Positions 450 to 7,645 of a stretch of DNA of 64,000 nucleotides are shown one piece after another (the first letter of the stretch is position 1; each line of letters begins with the position of its first letter). Made by a program: the position numbers and the translations under genes. Below the pieces are notes generated by a model. That model was not told where the DNA came from, ran no database searches, and saw nothing but the letters and a program-made list of their open reading frames with translations. Source of the stretch: Escherichia coli (GTDB taxonomy: Bacteria > Pseudomonadota > Gammaproteobacteria > Enterobacterales > Enterobacteriaceae); NCBI RefSeq assembly GCF_013315695.1, contig NZ_CP054353.1. One strand, 5' to 3'.

Positions 450-553
450 TTAGTGCTGATCCCTGTGGCTGACGAGTCTTTCCCTTAATCGATTAACCAG
501 ATTGATCGCCAGCCAAACAAGGGCATTAAGCAAATTTATCGTCACAAGCACTT
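450..553 (-). pseudogene. ymgF: ymgF 3' fragment (codons 41-72), separated from the 5' part by IS2
   Basis: Minus-strand translation (E)[33 protein letters not shown] continues in frame from the fragment at 1871-1990; together they give a 72-aa small membrane protein matching recalled YmgF. Confidence 0.7.
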
Positions 554-1456
554 TGGATTTGCCCCTATATTATCACTTAACCCATTACAAGCCCGCTGCC
601 GCAGATATTCCCGTGGCGAGCGATAACCCAGCGCACTATGCGGATGCCATTCGTTATAATGCTCGAACGCCTCTGCAAGGTTCTTTGCTGCCGTTAACCC
701 GTCTGGTTTGGGCATGATACTGATGTAGTCACGCTTTATCGTTTTCACGAAGCTCTCTGCTATTCCGTTACTCTCCGGACTCCGCACCGCCGTGTTCTTC
801 GGTTCAAGTCCCAACATCCGGGCGAACTGGCGTGTTTCATTAGCCCGGTAGCATGAACCATTATCCGTCAGCCACTCCACTGGAGACGACGGAAGATCGT
901 TGCCGAAGCGGCGTTCCACCGCTCCCAGCATGACGTCCTGTACTGTTTCACTGTTGAAGCCGCCGGTAGTGACCGCCCAGTGCAGTGCCTCACGATCACT
1001 GCAGTCCAGCGCGAACGTGACACGCAGTCTCTCTCCGTTATCACAGCAGAACTCGAACCCGTCAGAGCACCATCGCTGATTGCTTTCTTTCACGGCCACT
1101 CTGCCTGTATGTGCCCGTTTCGATGGCGGTACAGCAGGTTTTCGCTCAAGCAACAGCGCATTCTGGCGCATGATCCGGTAAACACGTTTGGCATTGATCG
1201 CAGGCATACCATCAAGTTCTGCCTGTCTGCGAAGCAGCGCCCATACCCGACGATAACCATACGTGGGCAGCTCTCCGATAACATGGTGTATACGGAGAAG
1301 CACATCCGTATCATCAGTGTGACGACTGCGGCGGCCATCCATCCAGTCATCGGTTCGTCTGAGAATGACGTGCAACTGCGCACGCGACACCCGGAGACAA
1401 CGGCTGACTAAGCTTACTCCCCATCCCCGGGCAATAAGGGCGCGTGCGCTATCCAC
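542..1456 (-). CDS. insD: IS2 transposase InsD (OrfB), variant C-terminus; ORF terminates 12 bp outside the IS end
   Basis: 304-aa ORF matching recalled IS2 InsD except the tail ...[12 protein letters not shown] (canonical recalled as ...LSDNRCLEI). Confidence 0.85.
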
Positions 1457-1870
1457 TTTTTTGCCCGTCCATATTCAACGGCTTCTTTGAGGAGTTCATT
1501 TTCCATCGTTTTCTTGCCGAGCAGGCGCTGGAGTTCTTTAATCTGCTTCATGGCGGCAGCAAGTTCAGAGGCAGGAACAACCTGTTCTCCGGCGGCGACA
1601 GCAGTAAGACTTCCTTCCTGGTATTGCTTACGCCAGAGAAATAACTGGCTGGCTGCTACACCATGTTGCCGGGCAACGAGGGAGACCGTCATCCCCGGTT
1701 CAAAGCTCTGCTGAACAATTGCGATCTTTTCCTGTGTGGTACGCCGTCTGCGTTTCTCCGGTCCTAAGACATCAATCATCTGCTCTCCAATGACTAGTCT
1801 AAAAACTAGTATTAAGACTATCACTTAAATAAGTGATACTGGTTGTCTGGAGATTCAGGGGGCCAGTCTA
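554..1870 (-). mobile_element. IS2: IS2 insertion sequence, 1317 bp, flanked by 5-bp direct target duplication CACTT (549-553 and 1871-1875)
   Basis: Terminal sequences TGGATTTGCCCC (554 onward) and GGGGGCCAGTCTA (ending 1870) match IS2 ends; insC and insD ORFs inside; identical 5-bp flanks. Confidence 0.9.
1414..1779 (-). CDS. insC: IS2 InsC (OrfA) transposase regulatory subunit
   Basis: Track ORF contains [26 protein letters not shown]...; start adjusted to conserved Met (121 aa). Confidence 0.9.
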
Positions 1871-2121: not shown

Positions 2122-3645
2122 TCACTCAACCACAACCTTCACCTTCGGTTTAGAAAGGATAATTTTGACCAGGTCGATGTATGTAACAGGTTTATAGAAA
2201 TAATAACCCTGCTGAAATGTGATATTATTTTGGTTCAGATAATCAAGTTGTTCTTTCGTTTCGACACCTTCAGCGACGATACTGATCGAAAGTTTACGCG
2301 CCAGATCCAATACACAATCCAGAATTCGGGTTGATTCTGGGTCTGCGTTGACGCGGCCAACGAAACTGTGATCAATTTTGATATAATCAATATGCAGGTC
2401 ATGCAGATAAGAAAGCCCTGAGTAGCCAGTACCGAAATCATCCAGCGCGATGACAAAACCATTTTCATGCAGAATGTTCAACCGCTGAACCAGACTTTCA
2501 TCAACATTTAATGGCTCACGCTCGGTGACTTCCAGAACGAGGTTTAAATCGCGGCGGGTAAAACTGTCACGGTAATTTAAGCACTCGTCGACAAACGTCG
2601 GCGAAATAATATGCGAGGCGCTAAAATTAATTCCAATATGAAAACCTTCCGGCAGTTTACTCGAGATAGCGTTCATCTGTCTGGCAACCTGATTCATCAG
2701 GCTTTGCGTAAGCGGAACGATTAATCCGGATTTTTCAGCAAGTGGAATAAATGCCGCGGGTGATATATATCCACCGTGAAGTTGTTTCCAGCGGGCTAAC
2801 ACCTCAACTCCCCGCAATGTCCCTTCCCGACCATTTACCACAGGTTGGTAAAAAGGGACGATCTCCCCATTATTTATTGCCCGTCGCAGGATCTCTTCAG
2901 GCGTTGCGCATTTATTGAAATACCTATCAAGCAGCAAAGCAGCGGCGCAGGCGATTAACAGAATAAATATCAAAATCCCAAAGCCTTTATCGATAAGTCT
3001 GTAGAAGCTAAAGAGTGGCGGCGGGTTAAAGATAATAGTGAAATGATATTTTGTGGAGTGAACCTTCTCGGTATAGGGATAATGTCCATTAAGCGTCATC
3101 ACATCACCCGTTGGTCCAATAATGTCATCCGCCACGCGTAATACATACCTTACCCCTTTCAAGGGTACATTAAGCGCCCCGCGAATATGCTGATCACTTA
3201 TCGTAACCAAAATGCGCGTATCTGCAAATTGGCTCTGATAGAGCAGGATAGGTAATCTATTAACGGTGTCGATTGCCGGAGCCAACAGTAAATTACTGTC
3301 CGGGACAACAGGAATACGAGACAGCAGGACCCGATTCCCCGGTAAGGATGTACACCAGACCGTTCCCTGTTTGAGAATGATGATTGTGCGCAGGTGAGGT
3401 TTCAGAGCTGCTTCAGTGCCAAGCTGATATTGCTCCTCGAGGTCGCATTCCTTCCCGGCAATGTTAACCGCTGTTTGAGTCGCCTGTGACGCTTCTTCAA
3501 GTATATGATTGATATTGTTGGCGGCATATCTCGCTCCTGCCAGGTACTCTGCTTTTGCGGAATACCAGAGCTGGATGTTCAAAATAGCGACACCGGTTAT
3601 AAACAAGCATATCGCAACGAGGATGGGTATGAGTGTATTGCGCAT
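2122..3645 (-). CDS. pdeG: CSS-domain cyclic di-GMP phosphodiesterase (EAL domain) PdeG/YcgG
   Basis: Track ORF 2122..3687; N-terminal TM, periplasmic CSS region, C-terminal EAL domain; start set at MRNTLIPILV (507 aa). Confidence 0.85.
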   Translation of the reverse strand: MRNTLIPILVAICLFITGVAILNIQLWYSAKAEYLAGARYAANNINHILEEASQATQTAVNIAGKECDLEEQYQLGTEAALKPHLRTIIILKQGTVWCTSLPGNRVLLSRIPVVPDSNLLLAPAIDTVNRLPILLYQSQFADTRILVTISDQHIRGALNVPLKGVRYVLRVADDIIGPTGDVMTLNGHYPYTEKVHSTKYHFTIIFNPPPLFSFYRLIDKGFGILIFILLIACAAALLLDRYFNKCATPEEILRRAINNGEIVPFYQPVVNGREGTLRGVEVLARWKQLHGGYISPAAFIPLAEKSGLIVPLTQSLMNQVARQMNAISSKLPEGFHIGINFSASHIISPTFVDECLNYRDSFTRRDLNLVLEVTEREPLNVDESLVQRLNILHENGFVIALDDFGTGYSGLSYLHDLHIDYIKIDHSFVGRVNADPESTRILDCVLDLARKLSISIVAEGVETKEQLDYLNQNNITFQQGYYFYKPVTYIDLVKIILSKPKVKVVVE

Positions 3646-3828
3646 TTGCTTGTCCCGGCCAAAGGGTTTAATACATGAAAATGCCATTCATTCGCTCGCG
3701 CTGGCATCTACAGAGAGCATGGTAGAGAGCATAAGAAATATCCACGCCGAAGATAAAATTTTCTCCATCTTGATCTAACCCATTAATTATTGAGCATAAT
3801 GTAGATAGAATAAAATAAATTAGGCGGG

Positions 3829-3882
3829 ATATCAGGTGTCAAGAATGGAGAGCGAGAACTCTCCATTCTTGACACCTGATAT
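3829..3882. repeat. Perfect 24-bp inverted repeat with 6-nt loop; probable bidirectional terminator or protein-binding palindrome between ymgC and pdeG
   Basis: ATATCAGGTGTCAAGAATGGAGAG-cgagaa-CTCTCCATTCTTGACACCTGATAT read directly. Confidence 0.8.
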
Positions 3883-3976
3883 TGCGGACATATTAAGAAA
3901 GCATAACGCCTGAAATGCTCACTTTGCACCAGCATGGTAATACAGCTGATGTTTATTCTATAACCTTACTCAAGTT

Positions 3977-4225
3977 CTAAGAGATCACGGATTCCCTGTC
4001 ATTAATAATGATATCCGTTAGTGTAGTCTTATGCATTTCAATGTACTGCAATATTTGCAGATAGAGATCAGAAAGAATCACACTGGTTTCATCTTTTAAA
4101 CGCAAGCGTAAAGCCTGATCAATAATATAACTATCAACATACCCATGCGTCATGAACACCTCCCTCTCGAGATTTTTAAACAAAGCACATTGCAAAATAA
4201 ATCTCTCTGGGATTGAATTATTCAT
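3977..4225 (-). CDS. ymgC: YmgC small protein (ycgZ-ymgA-ariR-ymgC operon)
   Basis: 82-aa ORF MNNSIPERFILQCALFKNLERE... matches recalled YmgC. Confidence 0.85.
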   Translation of the reverse strand: MNNSIPERFILQCALFKNLEREVFMTHGYVDSYIIDQALRLRLKDETSVILSDLYLQILQYIEMHKTTLTDIIINDRESVIS

Positions 4226-4337
4226 GTCAGCCTCGTAGAAATATTAACCCAATAAAATTATGCTGTGTATAGTCTAAAGCGACAGACAAAAATAAGATGA
4301 ATGAGTTTTCTATAAATTTATACTTAATAATTAAAAG

Positions 4338-4604
4338 TCACATATCATCCGCTGTGTATCGCAACACGATTTCCAGTGTTTTTCTGATCACATCAGCTTT
4401 GAGGATATCATTTGTTGTTTCCAGGGAGTGTATCAGACTTAAGATAATATTTTTATTATTAACATTATCGCCTGAAAGCATTAAATTGGTGACAGCCTGC
4501 CCTAACACAGCTGACTCTTCTTCTAACAAATTACCCGAACTGCGAAAGTAACTTGATAACGCTTTATCAGCTATTGCATTATGAATAGTAGTATCTTCAA
4601 GCAT
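4338..4604 (-). CDS. ariR: AriR/YmgB, biofilm and acid-resistance regulator
   Basis: 88-aa [23 protein letters not shown]... matches recalled AriR. Confidence 0.85.
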
Positions 4605-4632
4605 AGTAACCTCTCATCTTACTTATGAAATT

Positions 4633-4905
4633 TTAATGTATTCTGTTTATTTTCTTACCATTGAAAATACTTTTATTGTCAGTTATCGCTGTTCTTCTGT
4701 TTGGCCCTCCTGTATCACTGTTACTAAAATCACGAATTATGCTGTCAATTAAATCTCGTCGGAAAGCATTTTCCTCAACAGATTTCATTACGAGTAATTG
4801 CTTAATAAGAGTCTGCAACGAAAAATTTATCTTCATGCGCAGTATCTGGAGCACCGCCTGGCCAGTAATTTCATATTTTGTACTTTCATTATCAGATGTC
4901 TTCAT
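4633..4905 (-). CDS. ymgA: YmgA small regulatory protein
   Basis: 90-aa ORF MKTSDNESTKYEITGQAVLQ... matches recalled YmgA. Confidence 0.85.
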   Translation of the reverse strand: MKTSDNESTKYEITGQAVLQILRMKINFSLQTLIKQLLVMKSVEENAFRRDLIDSIIRDFSNSDTGGPNRRTAITDNKSIFNGKKINRIH

Positions 4906-4947
4906 AACGACTTCATAGCTAACCTGTTAAATAATCAGGCTGTTGCA

Positions 4948-5184
4948 TTATTCAAAAAGCAACCCAATTAGTGCATTATAATGTTTCTGTTCCTCTTCCC
5001 CTGTCGCTTGTTCCAGTCTGCCTAGAAGTTTGGCACAAAGCGACTTTCGACTCAGATTACGTCCATCTTTCAAAATCTCAGTCACAATTTCCCCGAGAGT
5101 TTCCTGCTGAGTAGGCAAGTTAGCTTTTGCAAAGTAACGAGTGATTGCTCCCGCAGAATCTAAAGTCACTGAATTTTGATGCAT
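4948..5184 (-). CDS. ycgZ: YcgZ small regulatory protein
   Basis: 78-aa ORF MHQNSVTLDSAGAITRYFAK... matches recalled YcgZ. Confidence 0.85.
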   Translation of the reverse strand: MHQNSVTLDSAGAITRYFAKANLPTQQETLGEIVTEILKDGRNLSRKSLCAKLLGRLEQATGEEEQKHYNALIGLLFE

Positions 5185-6709: not shown

Positions 6710-6913
6710 TTTTCAGCACATTATTTCGTATGATTTCTGAAAATCATCGTGAAAATGAATACGTTATGTTTAAATTTAATCCACATTAAAAATAATGTTT
6801 CATTCAATTTAGCTGAAATCTTATTTATACTTTGTACAATTTTAGCGTATATTGTACAAAGTATTATTGGGTCGTGTACAGGCGACGGAGATTTGTGACC
6901 GCAAGGAGGAATT

Positions 6914-7645
6914 GTGGCTTATTACAGCATTGGTGATGTTGCTGAACGTTGCGGGATTAATCCTGTCACTCTCCGGGCCTGGCAACGCCGCTACGGTTTG
7001 TTAAAACCACAGCGCAGTGAAGGCGGACACCGACTCTTTGATGAAGAAGACATACAACGCATCGAAGAGATCAAGCGTTGGATAAGTAATGGCGTCCCTG
7101 TAGGCAAAGTTAAAGCATTACTGGAAACCACCAGCCAGGATACGGAAGATGACTGGAGCCGCCTGCAAGAAGAGATGATGTCAATTCTTCGTATGGCTAA
7201 TCCTGCCAAACTACGCGCGAGAATTATTTCACTGGGTCGAGAGTACCCAGTAGATCAATTGATTAATCATGTTTACCTTCCTGTTCGCCAGCGTCTCGTG
7301 CTTGATCACAACACCTCCCGCATTATGAGCAGTATGTTTGACGGCGCATTAATTGAATACGCAGCAGCCTCGCTTTTCGAAATGCGCCGTAAGCCCGGTA
7401 AAGAAGCCATTCTGATGGCGTGGAATGTTGAAGAGAGAGCACGATTGTGGCTGGAAGCATGGCGTTTATCATTGTCAGGATGGCACATTTCTGTTCTTGC
7501 TGATCCCATTGAATCGCCGCGCCCGGAACTGTTCCCGACGCAAACATTGATTGTCTGGACAGGCATGGCACCAACGAGAAGGCAAAACGAACTTTTACAA
7601 CACTGGGGTGAGCAAGGTTATAAAGTCATCTTCCATGCCCCCTAA
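6914..7645 (+). CDS. bluR: MerR-family repressor BluR/YcgE
   Basis: 243-aa ORF with N-terminal MerR HTH ([30 protein letters not shown]). Confidence 0.85.

Follow-up and report, generated by a model that had tools for sequence, protein, structure and literature searches.

In the 64-kb stretch of Escherichia coli DNA analyzed here (the window), the 331-bp spacer between ymgC and pdeG holds a palindrome of 54 bases. It lies 94 nt past the ymgC stop and 184 nt ahead of the pdeG start, and both genes are on the - strand (table 1). At this locus, the window is 97.9% identical to K-12 and the hairpin corresponds to MG1655 coordinates 1,217,091-1,217,144. Homologous annotated loci place the ycgZ-ymgA-ariR-ymgC operon upstream and pdeG downstream, as the first-pass annotation of this DNA had it. 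The operon is induced by blue light and by cold, is controlled by BluR/BluF, and encodes small proteins that modulate Rcs signaling and biofilm formation. The palindrome marks the border between this operon and pdeG, whose regulation is poorly understood. A 50-aa ORF that runs across the hairpin (3783-3935, - strand) was rejected as coding, since it has no RefSeq annotation and a common 4-nt indel would shift its frame.

Table 1. Features in and around the ymgC-pdeG spacer (positions are those of the window)
Feature	Position	Strand	Remarks
pdeG (ycgG), c-di-GMP phosphodiesterase	2122..3645	-	RefSeq-type start (MRNTLIP...) at 3645
-10-like hexamer TATTTT	3812..3817	-	19 bp downstream of the -35-like hexamer; TGTTTA in insertion types
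pdeG-proximal arm	3829..3852	-	forms the 3' arm in gene-strand RNA; almost fixed in E. coli; T at position 3837 in the window
-35-like hexamer TTGACA, inside pdeG-proximal arm	3837..3842	-	pdeG -35 as predicted by Shimada et al. 2014; TTGACG in K-12; MG1655 1,217,131-1,217,136
6-nt loop, cgagaa on the + strand	3853..3858	-	closing U.G pair in gene-strand RNA leaves a 4-nt loop
ymgC-proximal arm	3859..3882	-	5' arm in gene-strand RNA; middle part hypervariable, with a 4-nt insertion and substitutions in about one-third of genomes
Mirror hexamer TTGACA, in ymgC-proximal arm	3869..3874	+	followed by TATTAA after 16 nt; promoter-like candidate, antisense into ymgC
Small hairpin GAGCAU...AUGCUU	3899..3920	-	-5.1 kcal/mol; UCUUAAUAU comes next; in the spacer on the ymgC side of the palindrome
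Small hairpin CAUCAGC...GCUGGUG	3927..3951	-	-8.6 kcal/mol; just past the ymgC stop; without a U-tail
ymgC	3977..4225	-	final gene of the ycgZ-ymgA-ariR-ymgC operon; 3' UTR assigned to include the hairpin

An inverted-repeat search of the window bears out the perfect palindrome with 24-bp arms and a 6-nt loop that had been described at first pass, and the string read from the window is identical. The pdeG-proximal arm is ATATCAGGTGTCAAGAATGGAGAG, cgagaa follows, and the second arm is the exact reverse complement of the first (24 of 24 positions complementary). Chance is ruled out as its source by uniqueness, by length relative to shuffled sequence, and by fold z-scores. When loops of up to 12 nt are allowed, it is the longest perfect hairpin in the window at 24 bp, the runner-up has 14 bp, and the longest hairpins in shuffled windows (n = 20) measure 8-14 bp. 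No second match to an arm exists in the window at three or fewer mismatches, and 0 of 100 shuffles gave two matches. The fold z-score is -10.1 for a 197-nt gene-strand RNA that includes the palindrome and -12.0 for an 82-nt DNA segment that includes it.

The spacer occurs at a single locus per genome, in about 4,835-4,950 of the 5,426 complete genomes of E. coli. Where searches reported two places in a genome, the palindrome had most likely matched itself, once on each strand. Across the searched E. coli genomes there is no annotated feature under the hairpin, and MG1655 has no repeat feature here. No phage matches the palindrome, the arm pattern GATATCAGGNGTCAAGAATGGA has no match in ~100,000 species-representative genomes, and a locus search of species-representative genomes based on the YmgC protein returned pattern matches of which 0 passed tblastn. 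The plasmid collection yielded 14 matches. All are E. coli records, non-mobilizable and bearing the same alleles of the hairpin, and several are chromosome-sized; these records look like chromosomal fragments rather than true plasmids. At a permissive E-value, no Rfam family reaches its gathering threshold (best match 29.3 bits vs. a gathering score of 86). The sub-threshold matches, which are to eukaryotic and viral miRNA precursors, a snoRNA, the Pseudomonas sRNA P8, and the PrfA thermoregulator, are what any long hairpin would be expected to give. No paper that prints the sequence string of the hairpin turned up in a literature search. The hairpin is a single-copy, E. coli-specific element outside any repeat family. 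We regard it as an unannotated, new regulatory or structural element of an already known type, which leaves current understanding standing.

These distributions bear on whether the palindrome could be a relic or a member of a mobile or repeated element, such as a MITE, a pair of IS ends, a REP-like unit, or a recombination site. Its symmetry resembles long terminal inverted repeats, the genes ymgC, ycgG, and ymgF are missing from other enteric bacteria (Tschowri et al. 2012), and in one strain an IS3 is inserted in the ymgC-proximal arm. However, an element that occurs once per genome and nowhere else in the window, in phages, or in the species representatives, that has only non-mobilizable plasmid matches, and that lacks both a repeat annotation in MG1655 and a target-site duplication flanking it in the window sequence is exceedingly unlikely to be of this kind.

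The comparison of alleles drew on six BLAST-selected genomes, on 80 metagenomic loci, and on identity bands from searches of the whole collection. In the K-12 type (~3,000 complete genomes), 23 of 24 pairs are complementary and a C at window position 3837 is opposite an A, giving C.A on the + strand and G.U in gene-strand RNA. The window type, found in ~151 of 4,953 genomes, is perfect by virtue of a C to T change at 3837. A second perfect type (~69 complete genomes) instead has an A to G change in the other arm. Insertion types account for ~1,700 complete genomes (~34%) and comprise at least four sub-variants; in them, the middle of the ymgC-proximal arm has a 4-nt insertion as well as several substitutions, the other arm has GGAAAA for GGAGAG, and the loop is changed. 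Rare intermediates, L025 (also strain 13E0780) and L056, are present in few genomes.

Because every lineage and allele class except the window type has C at 3837, the T in the window is derived. As no outgroup was obtained, the ancestral state follows from parsimony within E. coli; L025, at only 2-4% divergence, falls within the species and was therefore rejected as a possible outgroup. On this reconstruction, a common near-palindrome gave rise to the perfect form, which is a derived allele of low frequency. Genomes of the window type form a separate cluster of flanking haplotypes and those of the second perfect type have flanks identical to K-12 over ~520 nt; these different backgrounds imply that perfection arose twice independently. 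By the same haplotype evidence, it was reached once per arm, both times at the sole mismatched pair. Among the K-12-like alleles sampled, variation in the arms is limited to these two perfecting changes.

The perfect alleles probably originated by template-switch correction of a quasi-palindrome. At the sequence level, the change from an ancestral C/A mismatch to either T/A (~151 genomes) or C/G (~69 genomes) is the hallmark of a quasi-palindrome hotspot. Template switching in quasi-palindromes is a well-established mutational mechanism of E. coli, and its known hotspots include those in the thyA and lacZ reporters (the Ripley model and work of the Lovett laboratory). As in those hotspots, a single mismatch was converted to perfect complementarity in either arm and in independent lineages; unlike them, the case here is known from natural-population alleles alone. 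Ordinary transitions followed by drift or selection could also have produced the perfect alleles.

Energetics of the two corrections differ between nucleic acids. In gene-strand RNA, replacing the G.U pair by A-U or G-C adds 0.4-1.9 kcal/mol of stability, a gain so small that selection at the RNA level fails to explain the two corrections. The same corrections gain 3.9-5.4 kcal/mol on the other strand or in DNA (from -36.7 to -40.6 or -42.1 kcal/mol), and this larger gain points to a process at the DNA level, namely template switching in the quasi-palindrome.

Folding of both strands, a check proposed at first pass, predicts a very stable hairpin and favors the gene strand in every allele. In the window, gene-strand RNA forms an uninterrupted helix of 24-25 bp at -42.7 kcal/mol. 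Continuous pairs likewise number 24-25 in the K-12, L078, L047, and L056 alleles, and 14 in the insertion types. In 10 of 10 allele classes, gene-strand RNA is more stable than the opposite strand, by 1.6-13.6 kcal/mol. Standard pairing holds in 95.0% of cells on the gene strand versus 88.8% on the + strand, and the upper 10-bp helix is paired in 100% of cells on the gene strand through G.U wobbles. This asymmetry is in keeping with an RNA hairpin that is read from the strand of ymgC and pdeG. Counted by site, it is just 5 versus 2 and no measure is above shuffled controls, and we have therefore downgraded the argument. A C-to-T mutation bias on the non-template strand could be the source of the same pattern.

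A hairpin at the end of an operon invites comparison with intrinsic terminators, and the first-pass annotation had suggested a strong terminator that insulates pdeG. As in Rho-independent terminators, a stable stem-loop is located downstream of the last gene of a transcription unit. The stem, which had been described as much longer than typical, is indeed about three times the typical length (24 bp vs. roughly 5-15). Conversely, no U-tract directly follows the stem: its 3' flank reads CCCGCCUAAUUUAUU and has a d'Aubenton-Carafa tail score of 0.08, whereas textbook terminators, included for scale only, score 1.3-4.2. The stem has an A/U-rich base with CCCGCC after it, which is the opposite of terminator architecture. 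A scan of positions 3600-4300 for consensus terminators found 0 sites. Because it lacks a U-tract, the hairpin is not a canonical intrinsic terminator. By its tail score of 1.87, the small hairpin at 3899-3920, which does not vary among the six BLAST-selected genomes, may be a weak alternative candidate for one.

The ycgZ-ymgABC operon is poorly expressed at 37 °C. The Term-seq tables of Adams et al. (2021), which are from 37 °C cultures, list no 3' end at MG1655 1,2170xx-1,2171xx and no bicyclomycin-sensitive end at the locus. Supplements of SMRT-Cappable-seq have no entry for the locus and the tiling-array paper of Stead (2011) does not mention it. Polyadenylation was reportedly linked to Rho-independent terminators by Mohanty and Kushner in 2006. 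Polyadenylated ymgC mRNA was not detected (Mohanty and Kushner 2006); taken with that reported link, this would be a weak argument against a Rho-independent terminator here. The suggestion of a strong terminator is thus unsupported by U-tract, terminator scan, or Term-seq 3' end.

Northern blots show ycgZ-ymgABC to be a single polycistronic mRNA (Tschowri et al. 2012), which implies that the 3' end of the operon must form in or near the spacer. The palindrome could act as an atypical but strong terminator or insulator that does without a canonical U-tract, for example, by making polymerase pause at the hairpin and so favoring termination by Rho. The great stability of the hairpin and its position directly past the last gene of an operon with a discrete Northern band would suit this, as would a U-rich stretch, UUUAUUUUAUU, that starts 9 nt past the stem. 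We consider it decidedly unlikely, given the near-zero tail score, the empty scan, a stem some threefold too long with the wrong base composition at its foot, and the lack of either a Term-seq or a bicyclomycin-sensitive end in the 37 °C tables.

The palindrome also overlaps predicted promoter elements. Genomic SELEX detected binding of RpoD holoenzyme and of H-NS to the ymgC>ycgG spacer in vitro, at the resolution of the spacer only, and a sigma70 promoter of pdeG/ycgG was assigned in silico as TTGACG-19-TATTTT (Shimada et al. 2014). The C to T change at 3837 that perfects the palindrome also converts this predicted -35 from TTGACG to the consensus TTGACA. In the window, the predicted promoter matches consensus at 6 of 6 positions of the -35 and 4 of 6 of the -10, with a 19-bp spacer that passes the 17 +/- 2 rule of Shimada et al.; it fails a standard sigma70 scan with 16-18-bp spacers. 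Under the same criteria, it has the best -35 among gene-strand candidates in spacers of both the K-12 and window types. Insertion-type alleles have no usable -10 for it, even those with an intact pdeG. On the + strand, the top-scoring antisense candidate uses the mirror hexamer and reads TTGACA-16-TATTAA in the window and TTGACA-17-AATAAG in K-12. Text matches to 'pdeG' in papers on tandem promoters and tagRNA-seq were false, being 'kpdeg' and 'PdegP'.

One may thus ask whether the locus is mainly a DNA-level promoter of pdeG, in which the conserved arm supplies the -35 and upstream contacts, perhaps with a regulator or H-NS site, and the other arm supplies a mirror -35 to form a back-to-back divergent pair. 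Binding of RpoD holoenzyme and H-NS in vitro, the placement of the assigned -35 inside an arm, its consensus sequence in the window, the rank of the mirror hexamer among antisense candidates, and the far greater conservation of the pdeG-proximal arm all speak for it. But the hexamers were assigned in silico across a 19-bp spacer, both -10 candidates are weak (the antisense one has no T at position 6), insertion-type alleles with an intact pdeG do not have the promoter, and promoter function leaves 24 bp of symmetry unexplained. We judge this explanation unlikely.

A binding site for a dimeric regulator had also been proposed at first pass. This is disfavored: arms of 24 bp exceed any operator half-site, and about one-third of genomes have the 4-nt indel. 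Rather than half-sites kept together at a fixed spacing, the alleles show an indel between invariant outer segments and unequal conservation of the two arms. The inner 10-bp arms keep their spacing across the 6-nt gap and could form a small inner operator.

As for conservation across E. coli, which the first-pass annotation had named as a check, the locus is widespread, the hairpin is less conserved than its flanks, and its perfect form is rare. Relative to insertion-type lineages, the 54-nt hairpin is 13-17% diverged, in addition to the 4-nt indel, compared with 3-9% for the alignable flanking spacer and 2.8-5.6% for ymgC. The hairpin diverges faster than its flanks and is the fastest-changing part of the spacer. 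Change is not evenly spread. Conservation is far higher in the pdeG-proximal arm than in the ymgC-proximal arm, whose middle is hypervariable, and compensatory changes were never seen in the alleles sampled. All that remains in the ~1,700 genomes with insertion types is an upper helix of 14 bp with a short base, and there is no compensatory restoration; the full-length helix is therefore dispensable in about one-third of the species. Covariation in the arms does not exceed shuffled controls among the alleles sampled.

Such a pattern would suit a neutral quasi-palindrome, an old inverted duplication that template switching has re-symmetrized in some lineages and that is decaying in others, with any overlap with RNA or promoter signals incidental. 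The hairpin is the fastest-changing segment of the spacer, a third of genomes have a badly degraded version, several variants in the middle of an arm are uncompensated, and covariation is never above controls. Correction of the mismatch once in each arm is a classic quasi-palindrome signature, and its energy gain is greater in DNA or on the + strand than in gene-strand RNA. The lack of an annotation, an Rfam family, a paper that prints the sequence, or a Term-seq 3' end is likewise in line with neutrality. Drift alone sits less easily with the retention of the pdeG-proximal arm, the outer 7 bp, and the upper 10-bp helix in every allele seen, or with gene-strand RNA that is always better folded than the opposite strand. 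Moreover, the 3' end of the operon has to arise somewhere in the spacer, and a transcribed helix would block 3' exonucleases. Neutrality is the main rival to the reading favored below, though we would still call it somewhat unlikely.

Of the interpretation made at first pass, the location and gene context stand, and the strong terminator and the regulator site do not. An RNA-stability element is the most plausible of the options it offered. The reading we favor, tentatively and at somewhat short of an even chance, takes the palindrome to be a transcribed stem-loop of the ymgC 3' UTR that serves as a barrier to 3' exonucleases or as an RNase III site, with its pdeG-side arm doubling as the predicted -35. 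The hairpin would be transcribed within the 3' UTR of the ycgZ-ymgA-ariR-ymgC mRNA. A helix of about -42 kcal/mol would inevitably block 3' exonucleases if transcribed. Transcripts that extend past ymgC, whether by read-through or up to Rho-dependent ends, would then be trimmed by 3'-to-5' exonucleases back to the foot of the helix, which in this way would define and protect the 3' end of the operon. RNase III, for which ~22 bp are needed, may also cut the helix and separate the ymgC and pdeG segments of the RNA. In DNA, the pdeG-side arm would provide the -35 of the predicted pdeG promoter, should that promoter be used. Perfection itself would not be a functional feature under this proposal; it would have been derived by templated, strand-switch mutation at the mismatched pair.

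Known systems offer precedents for the favored stem-loop. The REP/BIME hairpins, such as that of malE-malF, are 3' stabilizers of mRNA that block PNPase and RNase II, and so are the hairpins at which trimming of Rho-terminated transcripts stops. By analogy, an intergenic hairpin past the last gene of an operon and without a U-tract would block the same enzymes here. It differs from REP/BIME in that it is single-copy rather than one of a family of hundreds, and hence outside the REP family, and in that it has perfect 24-bp arms rather than an imperfect palindrome of ~35 nt; its stabilizing role is predicted. RNase III accommodates ~22 bp of double-stranded RNA and its cleavage sites are enriched in intergenic regions within transcripts (Altuvia et al. 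2018). A near-uninterrupted duplex of ~20-22 bp is available in the alleles with 24-25 bp and unavailable in the insertion types, with 14. The palindrome resembles the RNase III hairpins of lambda sib, in retroregulation of int, and of the rnc and pnp leaders in having an uninterrupted duplex of at least ~22 bp in an intergenic position within a transcript. It differs from these in that about one-third of strains have a continuous helix of only 14 bp, and cleavage here is a prediction.

A more elaborate scheme would have the same 24 bp act as a dual-use switch, being an arm of the terminal helix in RNA and the -35 of pdeG in DNA, with the mirror -35 facing ymgC. Read-through from the operon or supercoil-driven extrusion of a cruciform would then occlude or expose the pdeG promoter. 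With the -35 inside the palindrome, extrusion would remove it from duplex DNA. Horwitz and Loeb are said to have described synthetic cruciform-controlled promoters in 1988. Those promoters and the locus share a perfect palindrome that holds a promoter hexamer, a predicted one in our case; unlike them, the palindrome here has a center that is not A/T-rich and a promoter that is only predicted. We think a switch very improbable. If it were true, signaling through BluR/BluF would be coupled to degradation of c-di-GMP, and the natural alleles with TTGACG, TTGACA, or a degraded sequence would be tuned states.

Variation at the locus leads to predictions under the favored stem-loop as well. Should the hairpin determine where the operon mRNA ends or how stable it is, or should its arm provide the -35 of pdeG, the perfect, one-mismatch, and degraded alleles would predict differences between strains in biofilm-related expression. 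Independently of function, the locus is a clean natural quasi-palindrome whose mismatch has been corrected once per arm, and it may be useful for the study of templated mutagenesis outside reporter genes.

The second-longest perfect hairpin of the window lies ∼50 bp upstream of the bluR ORF. The hairpin carries two copies of the motif TTGTACAA, each with a GTACA core, and this core is reported to be the recognition motif of BluR/MlrA (Tschowri et al. 2012). The hairpin is probably a MerR-type operator, for BluR or MlrA, at the bluR promoter.

Coordinates of features discussed in the text (window positions unless a locus is named)
Feature	Position	Strand	Remark
IS2-size element, about 1.3 kb, inside ymgF	~554-1870		
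InsC/InsD-like ORFs of the IS2-size element	542-1824	-	
ymgA, ariR, and ymgC mRNAs	3977-4905	-	
Hairpin, 14-bp arms and 10-nt loop, ATACTTTGTACAATTTTAGCGTATATTGTACAAAGTAT	6827-6864		Second-longest perfect hairpin of the window
bluR ORF	6914-7645	+	
IS3 element	L088 (Escherichia coli A29, NZ_CP028746.1) 3501-4735		Locus positions

Control of the operon mRNA at the posttranscriptional level is already known because ariR, ymgA, and ymgC are among the RprA sRNA targets common to TRIC-seq (preprint) and RIL-seq. Just past the ymgC stop, the stem of a small hairpin (3927-3951) has a U.G pair in the window (CAUCAGC/GCUGGUG) versus a U-A pair in K-12 (second arm GCUGAUG), and pairing on the gene strand is retained despite this difference.

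The 54-bp palindrome between ymgC and pdeG, or its neighborhood, can be an endpoint for IS insertion and deletion, since in strain A29 an IS3 adjoins the palindrome just past the loop, inside the ymgC-proximal arm, and the DNA running from ymgC into the 5′ region of bluF is deleted. The 5′ part of pdeG cannot be aligned, or is cut short, in alleles of the EcPF18 type (L003, the locus of E. coli EcPF18, 601-1494; window equivalent, 3100-3645), and RefSeq labels this pdeG "missing N-terminus." A pdeG of this kind corresponds to "ycgG2," an allozyme reported from neonatal-meningitis E. coli (NMEC) (PMC6385356). Degradation of the hairpin is shared with those other lineages of the insertion type (4-nt insertion in the ymgC-proximal arm) that have an intact pdeG; hairpin degradation and the change at the 5′ end of pdeG are therefore independent.

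Within pdeG, Term-seq tables list antisense 3′ ends at 1,218,619, 1,218,676, and 1,218,730 of MG1655 (- strand), one of which is in the bicyclomycin comparison table (Adams et al. 2021). These ends indicate that an antisense transcript runs into pdeG from the ymgF side. Relative to K-12, ymgF itself is interrupted in the window by the IS2-size element, with a 5-bp target duplication; the insertion cuts off YmgF after residue 40 and leaves a 52-aa ORF (1868-2026).
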